DNA of 44,559 nt from Candidatus Heimdallarchaeota archaeon (GTDB lineage Archaea; Asgardarchaeota; Heimdallarchaeia; Hodarchaeales; Hodarchaeaceae). The notes beneath the pieces are model-generated. The model was given only the letters and a program-made list of their open reading frames with translations, was not told the origin of the DNA and made no database searches. The stretch is taken from NCBI GenBank assembly GCA_020353515.1, contig CP070695.1, positions 4,047,632-4,092,190 on the forward strand, given 5' to 3'. This document shows positions 1-10,825 of this stretch, piece after piece. Position 1 is the stretch's first letter; every line of letters starts with the position of its first letter. Made by a program: the position numbers and the translations under genes.

Positions 1-1116
1 GAAATAACGCCAAAGATTAAAGAATATGATAGAAATGAGGAATTTCTTCCTCCACTTGATAAAATGGGCAAAATGGGGTTGCTAGGTATTTGTTTCCCTG
101 AAAAATATGGAGGAGCAGGAATGGATTATCTAGCATTAGCGATAGCTTGTGAAGAGCTTGAAAGGGGGGATATTTCACTCCGAACTGTCCTCTCTGTTCA
201 CGTTGCTCTAACTTCATGCACAATTTATCAATGGGGAGATGATAAGCAAAAAGAAAAGTATTTCGTACCTCAAAATCATGGTAAAATGATTGGAACGACT
301 GCTATGACTGAACCCTCCTGTGGATCAGATGTGGCAAATATAACAACACGAGCGGAGAAACAAGGTAGCCATTATATTGTTTCAGGTCAAAAAACTTGGA
401 TTTCCCTAGCTGAAATTGCAGATAATTTCCTTGTTCTAGCGCGAACAGGAGAATCTGGTTATAAAGGACTTTCCCTATTTATTATCGAACGTGATTTTCC
501 TGGTGTGACTACTACCTCTTTACATCACAAATTAGGTACTCGAGCAGGAAACACAGGAGAGCTATTTCTTGATAAAGTGGAAGTTCCTGAAGACAACCTT
601 TTGGGTTATGAGGGTGAAGGTTTCAAGATTTGTATGTCCGCACTAGATAATGGTCGGTTTACTGTCGCTGCGGGGGCGGTAGGCACAATTAAAGCAGCTT
701 TAGAAGCATCAGTGAGATATTCTCATGAAAGAAAGGCGTTTGGTCAGGAAATCGGAAGATTTCAGTTGATTCAAGAACATTTGGCTCATATGCAAGCAGC
801 ATATGACGCTTCTCAACTACTAGTGTATAAAGTGGCTTGGATGAAAAATCAAGGAAAACGAAACACTCGGGAAACAAGTATGGCGAAGTGGTTTGCTACT
901 ACCCATGCTCTTGATGCAGCCAATAGAGCTATTCAGATACATGGTGCTTATGGATATACCAGTGATTATCCCGTTGAAAGATTATGGCGGAATGTACGGG
1001 GAGCATGTATCTACGAAGGAACAAATGAGATTCAAAAGTTGATTCAAGGATCCTACGTAATGGGATATCGAAAATATAAACCATTACGATGTGAGATGCC
1101 TCGTTATGAACCATAG
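1..1116 (+). CDS. Acyl-CoA dehydrogenase (5'-truncated by window edge)
   Basis: The frame is open from base 1 (EITPKIKEYDRNEEF...), so the true start lies outside the window. ACAD motifs: PEKYGGAG, AMTEPSCGSD, GQKTWIS, R-x2-FG, IQIHGAYGY and catalytic IYEGTNEIQ. Confidence 0.95.
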   Translation, partial: EITPKIKEYDRNEEFLPPLDKMGKMGLLGICFPEKYGGAGMDYLALAIACEELERGDISLRTVLSVHVALTSCTIYQWGDDKQKEKYFVPQNHGKMIGTTAMTEPSCGSDVANITTRAEKQGSHYIVSGQKTWISLAEIADNFLVLARTGESGYKGLSLFIIERDFPGVTTTSLHHKLGTRAGNTGELFLDKVEVPEDNLLGYEGEGFKICMSALDNGRFTVAAGAVGTIKAALEASVRYSHERKAFGQEIGRFQLIQEHLAHMQAAYDASQLLVYKVAWMKNQGKRNTRETSMAKWFATTHALDAANRAIQIHGAYGYTSDYPVERLWRNVRGACIYEGTNEIQKLIQGSYVMGYRKYKPLRCEMPRYEP

Positions 1117-1143
1117 GAATCAAAATATGAAGATTTGATTCCT
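1115..1143 (+). terminator. Perfect 10-bp stem-loop overlapping the acyl-CoA dehydrogenase stop codon
   Basis: AGGAATCAAA (1115-1124) pairs with TTTGATTCCT (1134-1143) around a 9-nt loop. A role as terminator or processing site is inferred. Confidence 0.4.
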
Positions 1144-1259
1144 TAATTCCTTCAAAGTAATTAACATGTATCAGAGAATTTTTCTACTCGAACGCATCCT
1201 AGAATTTTTATGTAATGGCATTTTTCCCAGTCCCTAACTAAATCACAATTTTTAGAAGG

Positions 1260-2369
1260 ATGAACATCTTGAAGAACCATGATCTTTGGAAAGACGAACA
1301 TTTTGGAACTGAACCTCCCTGTATTACATATGAACTTAAACCATTAGTCACTCCTCAAGGTGAGGTAATAGAAGAGCTCTATTCAGCATGGATCACATTG
1401 AATAATCCAGCACAATATAATTCTTATACTACGCAAATGGTTAAAGGAGTCATTGCAGGTTTTTCACGAGCCTCAATGGAACGAAACGTTGTTTGTGTTG
1501 TTTTTACGGGTGCAGGAGATCGAGCTTTTTGTACTGGAGGTAATACGAAAGAATATGCAGAGTATTATGCAGGAAAACCCAATGAGTATGGACTCTATAT
1601 GGATCTGTTTAATGGCATGGTTGATGCGATCTTAAACTGCAAAAAGCCTGTTATATGTAGAGCTAATGGTATGAGGGTTGCAGGAGGACAAGAAATTGGA
1701 ATGGCTGCTGATTTGACCATTTCAGCGGATACCGCGATCTTTGGTCAAGCGGGGCCACGTCATGGCTCAGCACCAGATGGTGGTTCTACAGATTTTCTAC
1801 CTTGGATGTTAGGCCTGGAAGATGCTATGTATAACTGTGTATCTTGTGAAATGTGGAGTTCTTATAAGATGAAACGACTCGGGTTAATCACCAGGGTTGT
1901 TCCAGTCCTTAAAAATGCTGAAGGTCAATTTATACGAAACCCAACGGTACACACAGAAAGTTACATCAAAGATGGTGAAATAATATATGGTGAATTTCTT
2001 TCTGGAAAGGAGTTTAAGAAAGGAAGAGAACTAATGAAAGGATGTGAAATCGATTTGAATCCTTTAGACAAAGCGATAGATGAAATTATCTGGACTTTCA
2101 CTAATCTATTCCCAGGATGCTTGATGAAATCCATTGATGGTATCCGAATGAAAAAGAAATTCTTTTGGGATCAAACTAAGCTTGCAAATCGTCATTGGTT
2201 ATCAGTAAATATGATGACGGAGGCTTTATTAGGTTTTAGGGCATTTAATGAACGAAAGCAGACTGGAAAAGATGTGATTGACTTTGTAGAATATCGAAAT
2301 CTAATAGCCAAAGCTCATCCATTTAATCAAGAACTTATTGATGCTGTTCTCCCAAAACCCAAGGAGTGA
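1260..2369 (+). CDS. bamA: 6-oxocyclohex-1-ene-1-carbonyl-CoA hydrolase (ring-opening crotonase of the benzoyl-CoA pathway)
   Basis: 369 aa crotonase with Oah/BamA-type signatures: WITLNNPAQYNSYTT, FCTGGNTKEYAEYYAG, RANGMRVAGGQEIGMA, GQAGPRHGSAPDGGSTDFLP, TFTNLFPGCL. Confidence 0.9.
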   Translation: MNILKNHDLWKDEHFGTEPPCITYELKPLVTPQGEVIEELYSAWITLNNPAQYNSYTTQMVKGVIAGFSRASMERNVVCVVFTGAGDRAFCTGGNTKEYAEYYAGKPNEYGLYMDLFNGMVDAILNCKKPVICRANGMRVAGGQEIGMAADLTISADTAIFGQAGPRHGSAPDGGSTDFLPWMLGLEDAMYNCVSCEMWSSYKMKRLGLITRVVPVLKNAEGQFIRNPTVHTESYIKDGEIIYGEFLSGKEFKKGRELMKGCEIDLNPLDKAIDEIIWTFTNLFPGCLMKSIDGIRMKKKFFWDQTKLANRHWLSVNMMTEALLGFRAFNERKQTGKDVIDFVEYRNLIAKAHPFNQELIDAVLPKPKE

Positions 2370-2372
2370 AGA

Positions 2373-3581
2373 TTGATGCGATTTCAAAATACATACGTGC
2401 CTTACGGGGGATATTGGTCCAGTCCCTTTGTTCGTTGGCAGGGGAGCTTCTCGAGCTTAAATGCTATCCCCTTTGCAGCTGAAATGACAACCAGGGCCTT
2501 GAAAGACCGGAATGTATTTTTAAACTCCTTTGATTCTCTTTACTTTGGTATAACAATACCTCAAAAACATAGCTTTTATGGTCAAACTTGGTTTGCAGGC
2601 ATGATCGGAGCTCCTGAGATTACAGGACCTATGATTGCCCAAGCTTGTGCGACTTCGGCTCGAATCATCGCTAATGCTGCTTCTGAGGTCGAGGCTAGTC
2701 TCCACGACCGATGTATCTTAACTGTGACCTGTGATCGCACAAGTAATGGACCTCATATTCTCTATCCGAATCCCCTTGCTCCTGGGGGAAAAGCTGATGT
2801 AGAAAATTGGGTGTGGGATAATTTTGGATATGATCCCTATGCAAAAAACCCAATGATTCAAACTGCTGAAAATGTAGCAAAAGAAGCAGGAATAAGCAGA
2901 GAAGAGCAGGAAGAAGTTGTAATCTTACGCTATAAACAATACAACGATGCTTTAAAGGACAATTCAGCGTTCCTTAGGAGGTTCATGATTTCCCCGATCG
3001 AAGTTAAATCAGGGAAAAAGACAATTGCTACAGTTGAAGGTGATGAAGGAGTTTTTCCAACAACTGCAGAAGGCCTTACAAGGTTGAAACCTGTTTTAAA
3101 GGAAGGTACTGTTACATATGGAGCACAAACTCATCCTTCAGATGGAAATTGCGGGATGATCTTAACTTCTAAAGAAAAAGCTAATGAGCTCAGCCTCGAT
3201 AAGGATTTTGAGATCCAAATTCTTGCTTATGGGCAAGCTCGGAGTAAAAAAGGATTTATGCCAATGGCTCCTGTTCCAGCAGCAAGAAATGCCTTGGAAT
3301 CAGCTCAGCTTTCTGTGGAAGACATTACATGTACAAAGATGCATAATCCTTTTACTGTGAATGACGTCTATTTCAGCCAAGAAATGGGGATAGCGCATGA
3401 ATCCATTAATAATTATGGTTCTTCCCTCGTATGGGGGCATCCTCAAGCACCCACAGGCATGCGCCTTATCATTGAACTCATTGAAGAGCTAACATTGAAA
3501 AATGGGGGTTATGGACTTTTTACAGGATGTTCTGCAGGAGATTCAGCGGCAGCAATTATAGTTGAAGTTAATAAGGTCTAA
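2373..3581 (+). CDS. Thiolase (acetyl-CoA C-acyltransferase), HNPF/GHPQ subtype
   Basis: Nucleophile QACATS, MIQTAENVA, variant HNPF motif, WGHPQAPTG and C-terminal GCSAG. It starts 3 bp after the bamA stop with a GGAGTG SD; the start is TTG 2373 or ATG 2376. Confidence 0.92.
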   Translation: MMRFQNTYVPYGGYWSSPFVRWQGSFSSLNAIPFAAEMTTRALKDRNVFLNSFDSLYFGITIPQKHSFYGQTWFAGMIGAPEITGPMIAQACATSARIIANAASEVEASLHDRCILTVTCDRTSNGPHILYPNPLAPGGKADVENWVWDNFGYDPYAKNPMIQTAENVAKEAGISREEQEEVVILRYKQYNDALKDNSAFLRRFMISPIEVKSGKKTIATVEGDEGVFPTTAEGLTRLKPVLKEGTVTYGAQTHPSDGNCGMILTSKEKANELSLDKDFEIQILAYGQARSKKGFMPMAPVPAARNALESAQLSVEDITCTKMHNPFTVNDVYFSQEMGIAHESINNYGSSLVWGHPQAPTGMRLIIELIEELTLKNGGYGLFTGCSAGDSAAAIIVEVNKV

Positions 3582-3614
3582 TTCGAAATATTAACTAGAA
3601 ATAGATGTGTTAAG

Positions 3615-4784
3615 TTGTTTTGGAAGAAGAATCCCATCTGGATAGTCGGAGGCACAAAAAATGATGGATCAAAATTCCAATTAACTATAAAAAAAAAGTT
3701 TTTAGGCGCCTATGTAATCAATGGAGGAAGGTTGGATGGAGAAAACGCTGGTGAAATAATAATTCCTTTGAATCATCAGAGATTGATAGAAGTAGATCTC
3801 TCTCAACTCTCTAACATAAATGAAATTAATTTGAAGAATTCTCAGACTGGTAAGATTCAACATTTAAAATTGAAATTGAATAATAACAATCTAGAAGAGA
3901 TTGATTTATCTCCCCTTGGAAATTGGAGTGATTTTGAGGTTACTATCGATCTTAGTAATAATTTTCTAAAAAGAATTGATTTAGAGCCCCTCAGTTATTG
4001 TAAAGGGTTGAGGGAGCTAAACCTGAAGGATAATCAATTACAAAAAATTGATCTTACACCTCTACAACATTGTAAAAACCTCTGTCAAATTAATCTTAAG
4101 AAAAATGCATTGTCTCAAGTAGACATTAGTCCATTGATTAATTGTTTCTCGAACTGTCTCCCACTTAATTACCCAAGCATTGACATCGAAAACCATGTTG
4201 AAGTAATTATTGGATCTAAATTGCACAAGGTGGGGGAATGGTTAATTATCCATGAAGATGCTGAAAAGAGAAAACATGAGAAAAGGGGGGATTATTCTCC
4301 TTTTACTGTCAATTTGTATTCCTGTCTTTTCAATGAGCTTTCAGTAGATGCTAATGTTGAAAAAGTTAAGCTCGAATTTTCTCAGAGATTAGGGACTTTA
4401 CAGACTATTCGTAAGGAGATATTGGATCTTTTAGAGCAATCAATAGATATGAGTAACCACAGTCCTGAAGCAAGTATAATCAGGTCATTCAAGAGCTTGG
4501 AAGAGCTACTTTATTTGACTTATGAAAGAAAGTATGGTCAACCACTTTCATCTATCAAACCGTCTGAAATGCAGAAGGTTCTGAATAATATAGGAGTTAC
4601 ACCAGATAATATCGACATTTGGATAGGAACTGTACGCATACTTCGGAATAGGTGTATTCATCGTGAGTCTCAAAAAACACCAATTCACGTCACAATCTCT
4701 GATAGTAATCTTGTAATCGAGACTGTGTTAAGAATATTTGAATATTGGGAGAATAACGTCAACGTGAAACAAAAAAGATCCTAA
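3615..4784 (+). CDS. Leucine-rich-repeat protein fused to a C-terminal HEPN (DUF4145-like) domain with intact R-x4-H motif
   Basis: Five LRR units anchored on (I/V)D(L/I)x(P/Q)L at residues 60, 96, 121, 145 and 169; the last four follow LxxNxLxxIDLxPL at 24-25 aa spacing. The C-terminal helical domain has ASIIRSFKSLEELL ... VRILRNRCIH (R344-H349, nt 4644-4661) ... SDSNLVIETVLRIF. Confidence 0.75.
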   Translation: MFWKKNPIWIVGGTKNDGSKFQLTIKKKFLGAYVINGGRLDGENAGEIIIPLNHQRLIEVDLSQLSNINEINLKNSQTGKIQHLKLKLNNNNLEEIDLSPLGNWSDFEVTIDLSNNFLKRIDLEPLSYCKGLRELNLKDNQLQKIDLTPLQHCKNLCQINLKKNALSQVDISPLINCFSNCLPLNYPSIDIENHVEVIIGSKLHKVGEWLIIHEDAEKRKHEKRGDYSPFTVNLYSCLFNELSVDANVEKVKLEFSQRLGTLQTIRKEILDLLEQSIDMSNHSPEASIIRSFKSLEELLYLTYERKYGQPLSSIKPSEMQKVLNNIGVTPDNIDIWIGTVRILRNRCIHRESQKTPIHVTISDSNLVIETVLRIFEYWENNVNVKQKRS

Positions 4785-4869
4785 TTATCGAAGGTGAAAG
4801 TATAAATTTAGAATCGCATGAAACGAAGAGGAGGTTATGAAAAAGAAAGGGATTGGGAGATTTATTGTA

Positions 4870-5769
4870 CTATCTAAATTGGTGTGGTTCTGGTGGTTTC
4901 TTGGTATAGTCATAGAATCCTTTCCCTGATTTTCTCCCAAAATGGCCAGCACGAACCATTTTTCGTAGAAGTGTTGGAGCACGATATTTTGAGTCCTGAA
5001 ATTCAGAATACATGTAATCTGCTATGAAAAGTGCTGTATCAAGGCCCACGAAATCTAACAATGTAAGTGGCCCCATTGGGTGATTCAGACCTAAACTGAT
5101 TGCTTTATCTAAATCCTCGACGGTTGTTACACCTTCCTGAAGAGTAAAAATCGCTTCCAATAGAAATGGGAGGAGTAAACGATTAACTGCAAACCCAGGA
5201 GCTTCATTGACTAGTACTGTCTCTTTACCAAGCTTCTTTGACAGTTCATCAATAAATTCGTAGGTTTCTTCTGATGTATCATATCCTTTAATAATTTCAA
5301 CTAAGCGCATAACTGGAACAGGATTAAAGAAATGCATTCCTATGAATTTCTCGGGACGTTTCGTTGCAGAAGCCATATCTGTGATGGAGATGGATGACGT
5401 ATTTGAGGCGAATATACACTCAGGCTTACAGATTTCATCTAATTCCTCAAAAACTTTCCTTTTCAAATCTCTGTTTTCAATGATTGCTTCAATAACGACA
5501 TCTGCGTTAAATGCAGCGGCTTTTAGATCAGTAGTACCTTTAATTCTATTCACAACTTGATTCATCTGCTCTTGGGTCATTTTTCCCTTAGTGACTCCTC
5601 GAGATAAGTTCTTTTTAATTGTGTTTAGACCATTCTCTACAAAACGATCTTCAATATCTCTCATGGTGACTTCGTAACCTGCTTGAGCACACACTTGTGC
5701 AATGCCGTTACCCATTAAACCAGCACCCATTACACAGATCTTTTTTACGTCTTCAACTTTCATTTTCAT
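4870..5769 (-). CDS. hbd: 3-hydroxybutyryl-CoA / 3-hydroxyacyl-CoA dehydrogenase
   Basis: GAGLMGNGIAQ Rossmann motif, VIEAIIEN, ASNTSS, GMHFFNPVPVMRLVE, PMGPLTLLDFVGLD, GRKSGKGFY. Confidence 0.95.
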   Translation of the reverse strand: MKMKVEDVKKICVMGAGLMGNGIAQVCAQAGYEVTMRDIEDRFVENGLNTIKKNLSRGVTKGKMTQEQMNQVVNRIKGTTDLKAAAFNADVVIEAIIENRDLKRKVFEELDEICKPECIFASNTSSISITDMASATKRPEKFIGMHFFNPVPVMRLVEIIKGYDTSEETYEFIDELSKKLGKETVLVNEAPGFAVNRLLLPFLLEAIFTLQEGVTTVEDLDKAISLGLNHPMGPLTLLDFVGLDTALFIADYMYSEFQDSKYRAPTLLRKMVRAGHFGRKSGKGFYDYTKKPPEPHQFR

Positions 5770-5813
5770 ATAACTTCCTGAATATGTACAAAAAACAAGA
5801 AAATGTCTAATAC

Positions 5814-7397
5814 TTAGGTGTTCTGTTCTTCGTTATATCGTTCACGTAGCAACCTATGGACAATTTTACCTGATCCTGTTCGAGGGATTTCGTCATAATC
5901 AATGAAAATTACCTTCTTTGGGACTTTAAACCTCGGTAATTCTTGTCTGCAATACTCCCTGATTTCATTGGCTAAACTATCGGAAGGTTCACTGCCTAGG
6001 GTCAGAGCACAGATTGCTGTGACGGCTTCCCCCCATTTTATATCATGAAGTCCTACTACAGCACATTCCAAGACTGTATTATGTGCTGTTATGACCTTTT
6101 CAACCTCTGATGGAAATACATGTTCACCCCCAGTAATAATCATATTTGCTTTTCTATCCACCAAATAATAATAACCGTCTTCGTCTTTTTTAGCCATATC
6201 ACCAGCACTAAAAAAGTCTCCATCCATACTTGCTGCTGTCTTTTCTGCTAGTTTATAATAACTAGTCATTTGCATTGGACTGCGTGAAAATAATTCCCCG
6301 ATCTCGCCTTGGGACACTAGCTTTCGAGTCTCGGGGTCTAATAATCTAATTTGATCGGAACCAATACACTCCTGACCAATAGATCCAGCTTTATTGAATT
6401 GATCCTCAGGCCTTAAAATCGTAACTAAACCCGCCTCGGTAGAACCATATGCTTCAAAAAGGCGTACGTCTTTGAAAAGATCCATTACACCATATTTCAT
6501 CTGTTTTGTAGCTGGTGCAGAGGATGTCAAAAGGGTTTTAATCGAGCTAAGGTCATATTTTTCTTTGATTTCATCTGGAAGGCTTAATATTAAGTTATAA
6601 TGTGTGGGGATCAGCGAAGTAAATGTGATTTTCTCTTTATCTAAAATTTGCAGAACTTCTTCTGGATTGAAACCAAACTCTCTATGGACATATACGGGAG
6701 CCCCAACATAGGTAAATACAAAGGAATAGAAAGTGGAATTCACGTGTGAGAGTGGCATTAGGATTAAACCATAATCCTCGTGAGTAAAAGAAAATTCAGC
6801 TGCATTGATAAGGAAAAAAGAGATATACGAACGATGAGAACGAACAACTCCTTTTGGTCTCCCTGTAGTGCCAGAAGTATACAATAAAATCCATGGATCT
6901 TCTGGGTTTACTTCGATTGACGGATAAGATTCTTCCCCTTGCTTTATAATGTCTTCAAAGTAGCTCCAATTTTCCGTAACGGGGATATCACCTATCACTA
7001 TATGATCTAGTTTGTCTAATCCAAAATCTATGACCAAATCCCAATTATTTATTGTTATTTCATAATATCGAGATTCCACAATTACCATTTTGCATTCTGC
7101 ATTTGATACAATCCAATAAAGATCTTTGGGTAAAAGTCGAAAATTCAAGGGAACAATAATCAATCCTGCTTTTGCTGCAGCACAATAGATTTCCATAAAT
7201 TCAACTGAATTGTTTGATAGAACTGCGATTTTATCTCCTTTGCGTAAACCTCTTTTGAGTAAACCATTAGCCAATTTATTAGTTTGTTCATCAAACTCTT
7301 TATTAGTGAATGAACGGTTAATATCTTTAACTGCAAGTTTATTGGGATATTTGAAAGCATTGATATGTAGGATCTCTCCTAAATGTAACCATTTCAA
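5814..7397 (-). CDS. AMP-forming acyl-CoA synthetase (class I adenylate-forming enzyme)
   Basis: YTSGTTGRPKG, AYGSTE, GD(M)A-x6-Y-x3-R, GGEHVFPSEVE, PRTGSGKI. The start is re-assigned from 7526 to the TTG at 7397, which has a GAGGT SD upstream. Confidence 0.9.
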   Translation of the reverse strand: MKWLHLGEILHINAFKYPNKLAVKDINRSFTNKEFDEQTNKLANGLLKRGLRKGDKIAVLSNNSVEFMEIYCAAAKAGLIIVPLNFRLLPKDLYWIVSNAECKMVIVESRYYEITINNWDLVIDFGLDKLDHIVIGDIPVTENWSYFEDIIKQGEESYPSIEVNPEDPWILLYTSGTTGRPKGVVRSHRSYISFFLINAAEFSFTHEDYGLILMPLSHVNSTFYSFVFTYVGAPVYVHREFGFNPEEVLQILDKEKITFTSLIPTHYNLILSLPDEIKEKYDLSSIKTLLTSSAPATKQMKYGVMDLFKDVRLFEAYGSTEAGLVTILRPEDQFNKAGSIGQECIGSDQIRLLDPETRKLVSQGEIGELFSRSPMQMTSYYKLAEKTAASMDGDFFSAGDMAKKDEDGYYYLVDRKANMIITGGEHVFPSEVEKVITAHNTVLECAVVGLHDIKWGEAVTAICALTLGSEPSDSLANEIREYCRQELPRFKVPKKVIFIDYDEIPRTGSGKIVHRLLRERYNEEQNT

Positions 7398-7798
7398 TGT
7401 GAATCTAACCTCTTGGTCCTTAATTGAATAAAAATATCTTTTAACTGAATTAACGCTAGTACTGGACTGCTTGAGGATGTGATTGAAGTTTCTTCCAAGC
7501 AATCTGACTTTAGCAGAATAAAGCACATCGAATTAAGTATTTTATTAAAATCCCCCATGATAAGGAAAACCTTTTTCATTGTCTATTGCCTCTTCTCCTA
7601 ATAGTCTTGAAGCACCCCTATGATATTTTTACGCTAGAATTTAGTCAACTACTTTTTTCTTAAGTAAACTTTTCAATAGTTACTTTATATTTATTCAATA
7701 GGTTAACACTGACTTTACCTCCTTAAAATATATATTAAATTTGCTATTTGAGCTTTTTAAAGACATTCATTACTTTTCTTCCCACGGATGAAATCATA

Positions 7799-9718
7799 AT
7801 GGCAAGAATTGAAGATATTTTTGAGAATGTGAGTGATAAGACTCTCGTTCTATTAGGAAATGAAGCCATTGCTCGAGGAATTATAGAAGCTGGTGTGGCT
7901 GGTGTTTTTACTTATCCAGGGACTCCCTCATCTGAAATCCCCAATACCTTATATGCTGCTCAACCATTCTTGAAGGAAATTGGGTACAATTTATATCTCG
8001 AATGGAGTACAAATGAAGCAGTCGCTCTTGAATGCGCTTATGGTTTCTCCTTATTGGGTCATCGGGCTATTTTTGTGTGCAAACATGTGGGATTGAACGT
8101 TGCAGCTGATCCTTTCATGACCCTTGTGAATGCAGGAGTGATAGGAGGACTAGTTCTAATTGTTGCTGAAGATCCTCACATGCATTCCTCGCAAAATGAA
8201 CAAGATAATCGTTGGTATACAAAGATGTCTAATGTCCCTATGTTTGAACCATGTGATGCTAGAGAAGCTAAAGCAATGCTAAAAGACGCTTTTCGTGTCA
8301 GTGAGAAATACCAAGTACCAGTTATTTTAAGAACGGTTACCAGGATTTCTCATTCTCGAGCTGATATTCATCTCGATCCTATCGCTCTTCCAGAGTTTCG
8401 TCAAACTATATCAGTTAAGATTGATCCCAAGCGATTTGTGTGTGTACCTAGCAATGCCCGTCAAAACAAACAGCGAATTTTGCAGATTGTTGACGATCTT
8501 TCGAAATATATCGCAGAAACTCCTTGGAATCGGGTAGATGAGGGGAATGATGAAACATATGCATTTATTACTTGTGGTTCGGCTTATAATTACCTGAAAG
8601 AAGTATTATCCAAACTTGGATTAAAACACCCCACCTTGAAAATAGGTCTTTCTCATCCTTTTCCTCGGGATCAGGTTACTCAATTCTTACAGAAATATTC
8701 CTCTTCCACAATTATTGTTGTTGAAGAGGCAGATGATGTTTTAGAGACTTTTGTGAAAAAATTGGCGTTTGAAATTGGATTTCAACAGAAGATAATCGGA
8801 AGAGGAGAAGAAATTACCCCTTCTTATGGTGAACTAACGATTCGGAAGGTTTGGGATGGTTTAGCTAGAGTAATGAATTTTAATTCGCTACCTCTCGAAA
8901 TACCACAAGATCAATCTAATTTGATATTTTCTCGTCCACCTGTTTTATGTCCTGGGTGTCCTCATCGAGCAACTTTTTATGCATTAAATAAATCTATACC
9001 TAGACGGCACCGTATAGTATCAACTGATATAGGCTGTTATACCTTAGGTGTTGCCCCTCCGCTTTCTGCTGGCAATGTGACCATTTGTATGGGATCTTCA
9101 TTAGGTATCGGTTCTGGATTGACTCATAGCCCTGGTTTAAAAGGCCCAGTTGTATCAATAATTGGGGACTCTACTTTTTGGCATACTGGATTACCAGGCC
9201 TCGTAAATGCGGTTTATAACAGAAGTAACCTCTTGTTATTGGTTGTTGATAACTCCGCTACAGCGATGACTGGTTTTCAACCAAATCCTTCATCTATTAC
9301 CTCTCATTCTCTTGTCGAGACTCTAGCTATTGAGAATGCTGCCCGAGGTGTAGGTGTAAAAAAAGTCGCGAATATTGATGCTTATAACCCAAAAGAATCT
9401 ATAAAGGTTATTAAGGAAGCTGTTAAACAAGAAGGAGTTTCTGTAATCGTATCTAAAGGAGAATGTGTAATTCAATCCACGCGGAGGGAAGGGTTACCAA
9501 AAATTATTTGTTATGTCGAAGTAGACCGCTGTGTTGGCTGTTACGCCTGTGTTAACATGATAGCATGTCCTGCTATCATTTGGTCAGATCGATCAACAAC
9601 TGAGGAAGGAAAACCCATTCCAATGATTGATCAGTCTCTCTGCACACGTTGTGGATTGTGTGCCGCAGTATGTCCTTATGACGTAATTGTGACAAAACCA
9701 GAAAATGAGGTTAAATGA
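7799..9718 (+). CDS. iorA: Indolepyruvate:ferredoxin oxidoreductase alpha subunit
   Basis: LLGNEAIARG, YPGTPSSEI, KHVGLNVAADP, SSQNEQDNR, RPPVLCPGCPHR, DIGCYTLG, TPP-binding GDSTFWH, and two C-terminal ferredoxin-type Cys clusters (CVGCYAC...CP, CTRCGLCAAVCP). Likely start is the ATG at 7799. Confidence 0.95.
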   Translation: MARIEDIFENVSDKTLVLLGNEAIARGIIEAGVAGVFTYPGTPSSEIPNTLYAAQPFLKEIGYNLYLEWSTNEAVALECAYGFSLLGHRAIFVCKHVGLNVAADPFMTLVNAGVIGGLVLIVAEDPHMHSSQNEQDNRWYTKMSNVPMFEPCDAREAKAMLKDAFRVSEKYQVPVILRTVTRISHSRADIHLDPIALPEFRQTISVKIDPKRFVCVPSNARQNKQRILQIVDDLSKYIAETPWNRVDEGNDETYAFITCGSAYNYLKEVLSKLGLKHPTLKIGLSHPFPRDQVTQFLQKYSSSTIIVVEEADDVLETFVKKLAFEIGFQQKIIGRGEEITPSYGELTIRKVWDGLARVMNFNSLPLEIPQDQSNLIFSRPPVLCPGCPHRATFYALNKSIPRRHRIVSTDIGCYTLGVAPPLSAGNVTICMGSSLGIGSGLTHSPGLKGPVVSIIGDSTFWHTGLPGLVNAVYNRSNLLLLVVDNSATAMTGFQPNPSSITSHSLVETLAIENAARGVGVKKVANIDAYNPKESIKVIKEAVKQEGVSVIVSKGECVIQSTRREGLPKIICYVEVDRCVGCYACVNMIACPAIIWSDRSTTEEGKPIPMIDQSLCTRCGLCAAVCPYDVIVTKPENEVK

Positions 9719-9735
9719 TCTAAAGGGAGAACATC

Positions 9736-10197
9736 ATGAAACAGTTAAATCCAGAGTGGTGTGAATGGATAGTACCTTTCATAAATTCCAGTCCATTCTT
9801 TTCTTTCATGAACATCAAATTAAATGAATTTAGATATGGAGAGTCGTTCTTAGAACTCGAAATTCAAAATAATCATAAACAATTGCATGGTGTTGCTCAT
9901 GGAGGGGTTTTAGCTGCATTGATAGATGCTGCAGGAACTTTAGCTGCAGTGACTCGGATAGAGGGAGATTATAGTGCAACAACAATCGAAATGAAAATAA
10001 ACTACCTTTCGAGTGCAAAAAAAGGGAAAATACTAGCTCATGGGCATTGTCTCAAGCTTGGAAAGACTATAGGTGTGTCTGAGGCAACAATTACGGATGA
10101 AGAAAAGAAAATAATTGCTCATGGAATAGTAACTGTAATGATAAGAGCACCTATTTTATTCCAAGGAACAGATAAAATTCCTACCAAATTTGTTTGA
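9736..10197 (+). CDS. PaaI-family hotdog-fold acyl-CoA thioesterase
   Basis: GVAHGGVLAALIDAA, TIEMKINYL, LGKTIGVSEATI; GGGAG SD. Confidence 0.9.
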   Translation: MKQLNPEWCEWIVPFINSSPFFSFMNIKLNEFRYGESFLELEIQNNHKQLHGVAHGGVLAALIDAAGTLAAVTRIEGDYSATTIEMKINYLSSAKKGKILAHGHCLKLGKTIGVSEATITDEEKKIIAHGIVTVMIRAPILFQGTDKIPTKFV

Positions 10198-10228
10198 TCT
10201 GGATGCTATCGGGATTCTAGGTGATTAA

Positions 10229-10825
10229 ATGGAATATCAAATCTTTCTTGCTGGAGTAGGAGGACAGGGAATACTTTCTGTGACAGATATAATATGTAAT
10301 GCCGCTGTGGACATGGGTTTTAAAGTTCATGGCTCGGAAACGCATGGTATGTCCCAAAGAGGTGGTAGCGTTTTTTCAAATGTACGCTTTGGGGATGTTT
10401 ATTCACCACTAATTATGGAACGGGATTCAGATATAATCCTTGCTTTTGAACCCACTGAAGCTTTACGATATGCTCATTTTATCAAACCTAATGGAATTTT
10501 TCTTGTTAACATTCATCCTATTCCCTCTCCTAGTTTCATTTTGACAAAAAGTAGCTATCCTGAAATAGAATCTATTATATCGGCTTTAAAAAATTTTAGT
10601 TCGAATATTATTGCATTTAATGCGACTAAGCTTGCATCTAACCTAGGAATGCCGATAGTTCAGAATATAGTTATGTTAGGAGCTCTATCCGTAGTACCTG
10701 AACTTCCCCTCTCTGTTGACTCCCTAAAAACAGCTTTAAAAAAGCAATTTAGGGCTAAACATTTCAAACTTAACCTACAGGCTTTTGAAGTTGGTCGTCA
10801 AGCTTATGAGAATAATCCCCCTTAA
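10229..10825 (+). CDS. iorB: Indolepyruvate:ferredoxin oxidoreductase beta subunit
   Basis: AGVGGQG, SETHGMSQRGGSVFSNVRFG, AFEPTEALR, NIVMLGAL, NLQAFEVG; AGGTGA SD. Confidence 0.95.
   Translation: MEYQIFLAGVGGQGILSVTDIICNAAVDMGFKVHGSETHGMSQRGGSVFSNVRFGDVYSPLIMERDSDIILAFEPTEALRYAHFIKPNGIFLVNIHPIPSPSFILTKSSYPEIESIISALKNFSSNIIAFNATKLASNLGMPIVQNIVMLGALSVVPELPLSVDSLKTALKKQFRAKHFKLNLQAFEVGRQAYENNPP

Follow-up and report, generated by a model that had tools for sequence, protein, structure and literature searches.

A leucine-rich repeat–HEPN fusion protein from an Asgard archaeon as a candidate trigger-gated RNase

The window analyzed here is a 44,559-nucleotide (nt) stretch of the genome of Candidatus Heimdallarchaeota archaeon (contig CP070695.1). 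Near its start, at positions 3615–4784 of the forward strand (stop codon included), lies a gene encoding a 389-amino acid protein (P0001) in which five leucine-rich repeats (LRRs) are joined through a linker to a C-terminal HEPN domain of the DUF4145 type. The open reading frame (ORF) starts with TTG and is open throughout. An earlier note on this DNA had read it as encoding a single protein of this layout, and the architecture was borne out by Pfam, by sequence motifs, and by a structural model. We propose that the LRR-HEPN protein is a trigger-gated HEPN ribonuclease (RNase), giving even chances to this reading of its RNase activity, its gating by the LRR, and its biological role.

RNases of the HEPN type serve as effectors in Cas13, Csm6/Csx1, RNase L, the recently solved RAZR, and many abortive infection (Abi) and toxin systems. 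A question for such effectors is how each is kept inactive and then switched on. A direct fusion of an LRR to a DUF4145 HEPN domain, with neither an NTPase nor an antitoxin, would be among the simplest of repeat-sensor/RNase designs, and its occurrence in an Asgard host gives links to eukaryotic innate-immunity modules (LRR and Roc) special interest.

Structure and family of the HEPN domain

The HEPN domain (amino acids 263–389; nt 4401–4781, forward strand) was delimited from an AlphaFold2 model, structure matches, and ESM Atlas clusters. The model, which covers residues 245–389 and was built from an 11-row alignment, has a mean pLDDT of 89.3 and a pTM of 0.85. Helices 267–279, 284–307, 331–348, and 361–388 form a four-helix up-and-down core, with an insert (316–325) between helices 2 and 3. 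In a VIA structure comparison against 48,161 PDB representatives, the best match was AF0298 (2hsb; Z 13.5, 117 residues, 2.8 Å), followed by the HEPN domain of sacsin (3o10, Z 12.0), TT1696 (1ufb, Z 11.9), and the HEPN domain of Roquin (Z 11.8). HepT (5yep) and a HEPN toxin (7ae2) came next, at Z 10.9 each, and then LsoA, Csm6, AbiA, MtlR, and HepS. The top 30 Foldseek matches were almost all HEPN proteins, with modest E-values (0.03–1). Among ESM Atlas structures, the nearest shapes were DUF4145 clusters (TM 0.75–0.80, root-mean-square deviation 2.2 Å over 125 residues); other near shapes included the AbiJ-type Abi_C domain and type I restriction proteins carrying DUF4145. The helical C-terminal domain with DUF4145/HEPN layout that the earlier note had described thus has a HEPN fold, by the model and by the PDB, Foldseek, and Atlas matches alike.

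Against the Pfam DUF4145 profile (PF13643), the window domain scored 13.2 bits (E 0.099), below the cutoff of 23.1 bits. The domain matches the proteins P0009, P0085, P0086, and P0087 at E-values of 5e-19 to 1e-7. Several relatives score above the cutoff: P0086 (119 amino acids) at 33.3 bits, P0087 (874 amino acids) at 31.2 bits, and P0089 at 31.3 bits, as well as paralogous ORFs on two loci of the same genus (L034, 28.0 bits; L035, 31.2 bits). We assign the window domain to DUF4145 by transitive homology, not by direct score. Searches of PDB sequences by phmmer and profile, with the C-terminal domain and with P0086, retrieved neither a HEPN chain nor RAZR, and the matches that they did give (ELP3, E 0.35) were at chance level.

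The putative catalytic motif

The motif R341-x2-R344-N345-x-C347-x-H349 (nt 4635–4661, forward strand) was located at the end of helix 3 by the family alignment. Its core, RNRCIH, spans amino acids 344–349 (nt 4644–4661): helix 331–348 closes with R344-N345-R-C-I, and H349 opens the following loop. In HEPN domains, the active site is the motif at the end of helix 3, in which the arginine is followed by a polar residue, mostly N, D, or H; there is also a conserved acidic residue in helix 2, and noncatalytic HEPN families usually lose the motif (PMC3710099). The R-N-x3-H motif of the window protein is at the canonical HEPN position, and an invariant acidic residue, E296 (nt 4500–4502, forward strand; alignment A2), is present in its helix 2 (284–307).

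R344 and N345 do not vary among the 20 family members, and the complete R..RN.C.H signature is retained in 18 of the 20, which span 30–40% identity. The intact R-N-x3-H motif of the earlier note is therefore borne out for the window protein itself. Of the two residues whose lack of conservation in homologs would, by that note, have refuted its reading, R344 is conserved throughout, and H349 is present in 18 of 20 members and replaced by tyrosine in P0006 and P0007 (codon TAT in locus L003, CAT in the window). P0006 and P0007 are sister sequences, 91% identical to each other, that come from independent assemblies (ENA and JGI) and carry the same change; H349Y is therefore one real, retained substitution. 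The ratio of nonsynonymous to synonymous substitutions (dN/dS) in the HEPN domain is 0.15–0.17 for the Tyr-bearing L003 copy versus His-bearing copies, compared with 0.09–0.11 among His-bearing copies. By this measure, the H349Y lineage is under slight relaxation and nowhere near decay. Either tyrosine is tolerated in the active site, or another function, such as dimerization or binding, is also selected. The His-to-Tyr orthologs are a natural experiment on whether selection acts on catalysis.

A predicted HEPN homodimer

The earlier note had suggested modeling the HEPN domain as a homodimer. A symmetric homodimer was predicted, with an ipSAE of 0.77 versus 0.01 for the best control. Of 30 benchmark proteins whose structures were solved as pairs, 20 reached this mark, compared with 1 of 23 solved as single chains. 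Three runs agreed in 100% of contacts, and the pLDDT of the partner was ≥84. The predicted interface is formed by residues 330–346 (helix 3) and 355–377 (loop and helix 4), and contains the invariant residues W336, T339, and D363.

Leucine-rich repeats and linker

The five LRRs (amino acids 56–180; nt 3780–4154, forward strand) are each ~24 residues in length and carry an IDLxPL signature. A regular-expression search located five [IV]D[LI]x[PQ]L units at amino acids 60, 96, 121, 145, and 169 (nt 3792–4136), and Pfam LRR_8 (33.1 bits, E 4.8e-8) and LRR_4 (27.9 bits) both exceeded the gathering cutoff (27), in agreement with the number and type of repeats originally reported. NCBIfam yielded only weak internalin LRR matches to the protein, and language-model look-alikes were generic LRR clusters alone, with scores (~0.8) at chance level. 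Preceding the repeats is a β-rich region (amino acids 1–55; nt 3615–3779, forward strand) that is probably an LRR N-cap; it contains β-strands in the full-length model, is conserved in P0009, and has no Pfam match. Following the repeats are C-cap strands and a charged helical linker (amino acids 181–262; nt 4155–4400, forward strand), assigned from the modeled secondary structure; conservation along the protein is lowest here (68–82% identity).

Related Asgard LRR arrays carry other partners, namely Mrr_cat nuclease, BRCT, HhH, and TFIIB-repeat modules. These varied partners support the LRR being a portable interaction module, and they bear on the survey for swappable effectors that the earlier note had proposed. 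One of the fusions, P0055 (592 amino acids), has an Asgard-type LRR array followed by a C-terminal Mrr_cat restriction-endonuclease domain, a second "LRR plus nuclease" architecture that parallels LRR-HEPN. The host genome itself has about a dozen separate loci for LRR proteins (40 LRR_8 matches), with a dense cluster at ~4.474–4.477 Mb.

The coding sequence and its constraint

Six close orthologs are 78–83% identical to the window protein, and have source names of Promethearchaeota, Hodarchaeota, or Thorarchaeota metagenome-assembled genomes, in support of an Asgard origin. Across four independent loci, dN/dS for the whole gene is 0.16–0.22. The HEPN domain has the lowest values in the gene (0.09–0.17), and the LRR has values of 0.11–0.27. 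As judged from these ratios, the LRR-HEPN gene is a real gene under purifying selection. The dN/dS values, together with conservation in relatives as distant as 38% identity, led us to reject an artefactual ORF or a pseudogene.

Every ortholog with recovered DNA starts at the TTG that corresponds to 3615, and the ORF contains no in-frame ATG close to its 5′ end. An alternative start at the ATG at 3661 was rejected, being out of frame and followed by a stop after seven codons. The N-terminal residues are conserved even in P0009, which is 38% identical, and must therefore be translated. Immediately upstream, a 14-nt block (AATAGATGTGTTAA; 3600–3613, forward strand) is identical in the window and in loci L001, L002, and L003, where the remaining spacer has diverged. 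Together with the TTG, this block is possibly a translation or transcription signal (ribosome binding, a promoter element, or other). The earlier note had also drawn attention to an A9 run. The run is present at 3689–3697, yet it has no special meaning, as it simply codes for three conserved lysines (KKK), and in two orthologs it is broken up (AAAGAAAAAG); phase variation or frameshifting at this site was ruled out on the same grounds.

Rarity and relatives

The domain is rare. When 400 genomes of the phylum, representing 85 genera, were searched with its profile, six gave matches, all from this single genus, and an exhaustive phmmer search of 1.84 billion cluster representatives with the C-terminal domain matched six proteins and no more. 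The LRR-HEPN family comprises eight sequences, counting that of the window, all from one genus. Neither a second DUF4145 domain nor a further copy of the gene was found in the host genome, a single contig of 4.94 Mb.

In a collection of 5.8 billion proteins, longer relatives fell into three groups: the six LRR-HEPN orthologs; P0085, which has a zinc-ribbon tail; and proteins in which DUF4145 is preceded by a MinD/ParA-like ATPase and a Roc GTPase. The MinD/ParA-Roc-DUF4145 group has about ten members of 680–910 amino acids, with the HEPN domain in a C-terminal, effector-like position. These architectures indicate that the same HEPN effector lies behind two kinds of regulatory module, either an LRR or a P-loop ATPase with a Roc GTPase. 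A divergent LRR-bearing relative, P0009 (535 amino acids), has an LRR, a HEPN domain, and a RING/zinc-ribbon-like tail, and is encoded on a short contig in a different context. No wider relatives of P0009 were found, making it a singleton.

Cysteine-rich zinc-ribbon/RING-like tails follow the HEPN domain in both P0009 (residues 485–528) and P0085 (508–554), with weak matches to Pfam zf-UDP and zf-C2HC5. These tails recall the zinc finger of RAZR and the HEPN-RING combination of animal DZIP3. Two MinD/ParA-Roc-HEPN loci were found in genomes of the same genus (L034:501–4703 in G018 and L035:866–4438 in G019), each with a gene for a protein of ~900 amino acids comprising the ATPase, the Roc GTPase, an uncharacterized middle region, and the DUF4145 HEPN domain. 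In both genomes, the gene is directly downstream of one for a CEP76/transglutaminase-like peptidase; the L034 locus additionally has a convergent Transglut_core gene. The peptidase and Roc-HEPN pair looks like a conserved two-gene module.

Genomic locus and history of the gene

The gene lies between those for a thiolase (2373–3581, forward strand; Pfam Thiolase_N and Thiolase_C) and a convergent 3-hydroxyacyl-CoA dehydrogenase (hbd; 4870–5769, reverse strand; Pfam 3HCDH_N and 3HCDH), which flank the insertion slot. The metabolic setting noted earlier was confirmed by these Pfam matches, as was the lack of an adjacent MNT antitoxin, the flanks being thiolase and hbd here and in ortholog loci. 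More broadly, Pfam detected no nucleotidyltransferase or other antitoxin family among the neighbors of LRR-HEPN. Across 1–10825, the window encodes Pfam families for an acyl-CoA dehydrogenase, a 369-amino acid enoyl-CoA hydratase-family protein, the thiolase, and hbd, along with an AMP-forming acyl-CoA synthetase, a 2-oxoacid:ferredoxin oxidoreductase subunit, and a thioesterase; this cluster is syntenic across the genus. In every close ortholog whose context could be recovered, the genes run acyl-CoA dehydrogenase, enoyl-CoA hydratase, thiolase, LRR-HEPN, convergent hbd, and acyl-CoA synthetase.

Among 22 species-level genomes of the genus, an LRR-HEPN ortholog occurs only in G014 besides the window genome. 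The junction is empty in eight same-genus genomes (G002, G006, G008, G011, G013, G019, G020, and G021), some of which have an hbd 92% identical to that of the window. In these, the thiolase and hbd stop codons are ~40–110 nt apart, separated by a short hairpin-bearing spacer. Presence of the gene at this otherwise tight junction is thus patchy, a point that the earlier note had proposed to survey. A tree of hbd, thiolase, and synthetase places all bearers in one clade (support 98/99), and this clade includes G017, in which LRR-HEPN is gone and an unrelated ORF occupies its slot. That ORF (L014:1044–1580, reverse strand) is shared with a metagenome contig (L003:3756–4073, reverse strand); the two copies are 77% identical and belong to no Pfam family, and the true length is probably ~125 amino acids. 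In G015, the thiolase/hbd slot contains a GYD-domain gene (L015:1090–1380, forward strand). No remnants of LRR-HEPN were detected in the G017 and G015 gaps by tblastn or blastn. The simplest history suggested by these comparisons is that the gene was gained once at a cargo-tolerant junction, descended vertically, and was lost once, and the empty and filled sites within one genus provide a dated single acquisition.

The insertion is not flanked by any meaningful direct or inverted repeats, and no integrase is present. The GC content at third codon positions (GC3) is 0.315, equal to that of the neighbors (0.27–0.33), and total GC is low (0.338). A foreign-DNA signature was considered and rejected, with the low GC attributed to amino acid composition and GC3 matching the neighbors. 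Lacking flanking repeats or an integrase, and having the GC3 of its neighbors, the insertion is not recent. A sigma-70 and terminator scan, a type that does not suit archaea, gave results at shuffle level.

Proposed function and alternatives

We propose the following mechanism. The protein would be a cytoplasmic single chain in which a five-repeat LRR solenoid, serving as a protein- or ligand-binding module, is carried on a helical linker to the DUF4145-type HEPN domain. The HEPN domain is predicted to pair through helices 3 and 4, and by analogy to other HEPN enzymes, pairing would bring two R344-N345-x3-H349 motifs, together with E296, into one metal-independent RNase site. Binding of a trigger by the LRR would control access to this site or its assembly, and the outcome would be a trigger-dependent burst of RNA cleavage. 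The role would most plausibly be in conflict (antiviral or abortive infection) or in stress response, served by an accessory gene that a sub-lineage within a single Asgard genus gained one time.

A number of observations weigh against this reading. The neighbors are metabolic, and the locus lacks a defense island, an integrase, and flanking repeats; inheritance of the gene is vertical, its GC3 matches that of its neighbors, and no immunity or antitoxin partner is evident. The LRR does not display the diversifying selection typical of immune sensors (dN/dS 0.11–0.27). The whole protein matched no family in PADLOC-DB v2 at E-values up to 1, and the isolated window domain had a weak match to AbiD alone, in the motif region (E 0.0018). 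The best structural matches, 2hsb and the sacsin HEPN domain, are HEPN proteins not proven as RNases. The dimer score may partly be model memory, as HEPN dimers are well represented among solved structures. Tyr349 orthologs are still under purifying selection, and His-dependent catalysis therefore cannot be the sole selected function. The metabolic neighbors, the nondiversifying LRR, the absence of any partner gene, and the H349Y orthologs together weaken a classical immune reading in particular. A more specific version of the proposal, which we put forward tentatively and rather doubt, is that LRR-HEPN is an NTPase-free, stand-alone immune receptor whose LRR senses a viral or mobile-element protein and licenses the dimeric DUF4145 RNase, with MinD/ParA-Roc-HEPN as a GTPase-gated version. 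Were this so, an Asgard lineage would have wired the LRR and Roc modules of eukaryotic ROCO and NLR proteins to an RNase suicide or dormancy effector.

The protein might instead be a noncatalytic signaling component or adaptor, in which the HEPN domain serves for dimerization or ligand binding and leaves RNA uncut (as in sacsin, MtlR, and nucleotidyltransferase-associated HEPN domains), and the LRR is a scaffold within the lineage's expanded LRR/Roc-GTPase signaling repertoire. We consider this somewhat unlikely. The main evidence for it is Tyr349 in two orthologs under purifying selection. The strongest structure matches (2hsb, 3o10, and 1ufb) lack shown RNase activity, and the location of invariant W336, T339, and D363 in the predicted interface makes dimerization itself look selected. 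Stable vertical inheritance, the lack of an immunity partner, the dozen or so LRR loci in the genome, and the placement of the same HEPN domain after Roc GTPases in paralogs also fit an adaptor. However, the invariance of R344, N345, and E296, along with retention of H349 in 18 of 20 members, at 30–40% identity is hard to explain without catalysis. Moreover, noncatalytic HEPN families usually lose the motif (PMC3710099), and the sole characterized DUF4145 member is an active RNase (PMC13017515).

Two further explanations tie the protein to genes around it. That it is a locus-specific post-transcriptional regulator, co-transcribed with the acyl-CoA dehydrogenase, hydratase, and thiolase genes and tuning the stability of the cluster's mRNAs when its LRR senses a metabolite or protein, seems to us improbable. 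All close orthologs with recoverable context do sit directly after the thiolase gene, on the same strand and 33–110 nt away, with a conserved start codon and upstream 14-mer and a GC3 equal to that of the neighbors; MtlR-type HEPN folds, which regulate operons, are also among the structure matches (3brj and 6kcr). But the same cluster has an empty thiolase/hbd junction in eight same-genus genomes, the gene is lost in G017, a member of the bearing clade, and the divergent relative P0009 is in a different context. The slot elsewhere holds unrelated cargo (the GYD gene and the ORF without a Pfam family), which makes the position appear to be one that permits insertions and not one of functional linkage. 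A toxin belonging to an unrecognized toxin-antitoxin-like pair, neutralized by a small neighboring ORF or an unlinked gene, is the explanation to which we give very little credence. Many HEPN proteins are toxins (PMC3710099), and an extra small ORF is convergent to the gene in the Tyr-bearing lineage. This ORF, however, is absent from the window, L001, and L002, and it persists in G017 after the loss of LRR-HEPN, which indicates that the two are not interdependent; nor is an MNT or other antitoxin family adjacent.

Comparison with known systems

No paper on an Asgard LRR-HEPN or Roc-HEPN protein turned up in our literature searches. With no such paper and no PADLOC match to the whole protein, the claim that no named defense system has the LRR-HEPN architecture was upheld. 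Among the relatives, PADLOC gave weak matches in the HEPN region to PDC-M16A (4e-7), Cas13b (4e-4), and AbiD (0.002). The further suggestion of an archaeal analogue of NLR/TLR immunity overreaches, as the family is confined to one genus and lacks an NTPase. Being tiny as well as restricted to one genus, the LRR-HEPN family cannot be ancestral to eukaryotic systems.

The window domain resembles members of DUF4145 (clan CL0291) in its fold, the position of its motif, the acidic residue of helix 2, and its fusion to varied modules, but differs in its sub-threshold score and in forming a divergent, genus-restricted subfamily. Fusion partners listed for DUF4145 are REase, helicases, Sel1 repeats, Zn ribbon, TIR, and ATPases, with LRR not among them, and LRR-HEPN combinations were noted only for the animal DZIP3 family (PMC3710099). 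The window HEPN domain is most closely related to those of the MinD/ParA-Roc-DUF4145 proteins (P0087, P0090–P0097, L034:1261–3969, and L035:866–3553), which are 31–34% identical to it (E 1e-13 to 1e-15) and share its motif and C-terminal placement. These proteins differ in being ~900 amino acids in length, in having a P-loop ATPase and Roc in place of the LRR, and in being encoded at other loci, after the gene for the CEP76/transglutaminase-like peptidase. The window protein is not a ROCO protein, as Roc and COR are absent from P0001 and Roc occurs only in the ~900-amino acid paralogs.

The logic of a repeat sensor joined to an effector is shared with animal DZIP3/hRUL138 and with NLR/STAND proteins. 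DZIP3/hRUL138 HEPN proteins combine HEPN with LRR, Zn ribbon, or RING in immune-type multidomain proteins (PMC3710099). However, no sequence affinity was detected between the window domain and the DZIP3 HEPN family. In NLR/STAND proteins (Avs and bNACHT), a central STAND NTPase lies between effector and repeat sensor; P-loop, NACHT, and NB-ARC domains are absent from the window protein at E ≤ 0.1, and a length of 389 amino acids leaves no room for them. The window protein is therefore not an NLR/STAND protein. The likeness to DZIP3 and NLR proteins is a convergence of architecture, not ancestry. HEPN-MNT systems (HepT/MntA) have in common with the window protein the HEPN fold, the Rx4H motif, and a dimeric toxin, with 5yep and 7ae2 among its structure matches, but the window gene has no adjacent nucleotidyltransferase and is not part of such a pair, and its HEPN domain is fused to an LRR and belongs to a different subfamily.

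The closest parallel in design is with RAZR (ring-activated zinc-finger RNase; PD-T7-4), which combines a zinc finger with DUF4145 and is an RNase activated by direct binding to phage protein rings; mutation of Arg or His in its DUF4145 motif abolishes defense (PMC13017515). Both are small single chains with an N-terminal binding module, a C-terminal DUF4145-type HEPN domain, and no antitoxin. In RAZR, the sensor is a Cys4 zinc ribbon and 24-mers form on phage protein rings, whereas the window protein has an LRR solenoid and an archaeal host. The zinc finger is absent from P0001; a Zn-ribbon/RING-like tail is present in the relatives P0009 and P0085, but C-terminal to the HEPN domain. By analogy, LRR-HEPN would share with RAZR the plan of a sensor module joined to a DUF4145 RNase, and what is new is the LRR as the putative sensor.

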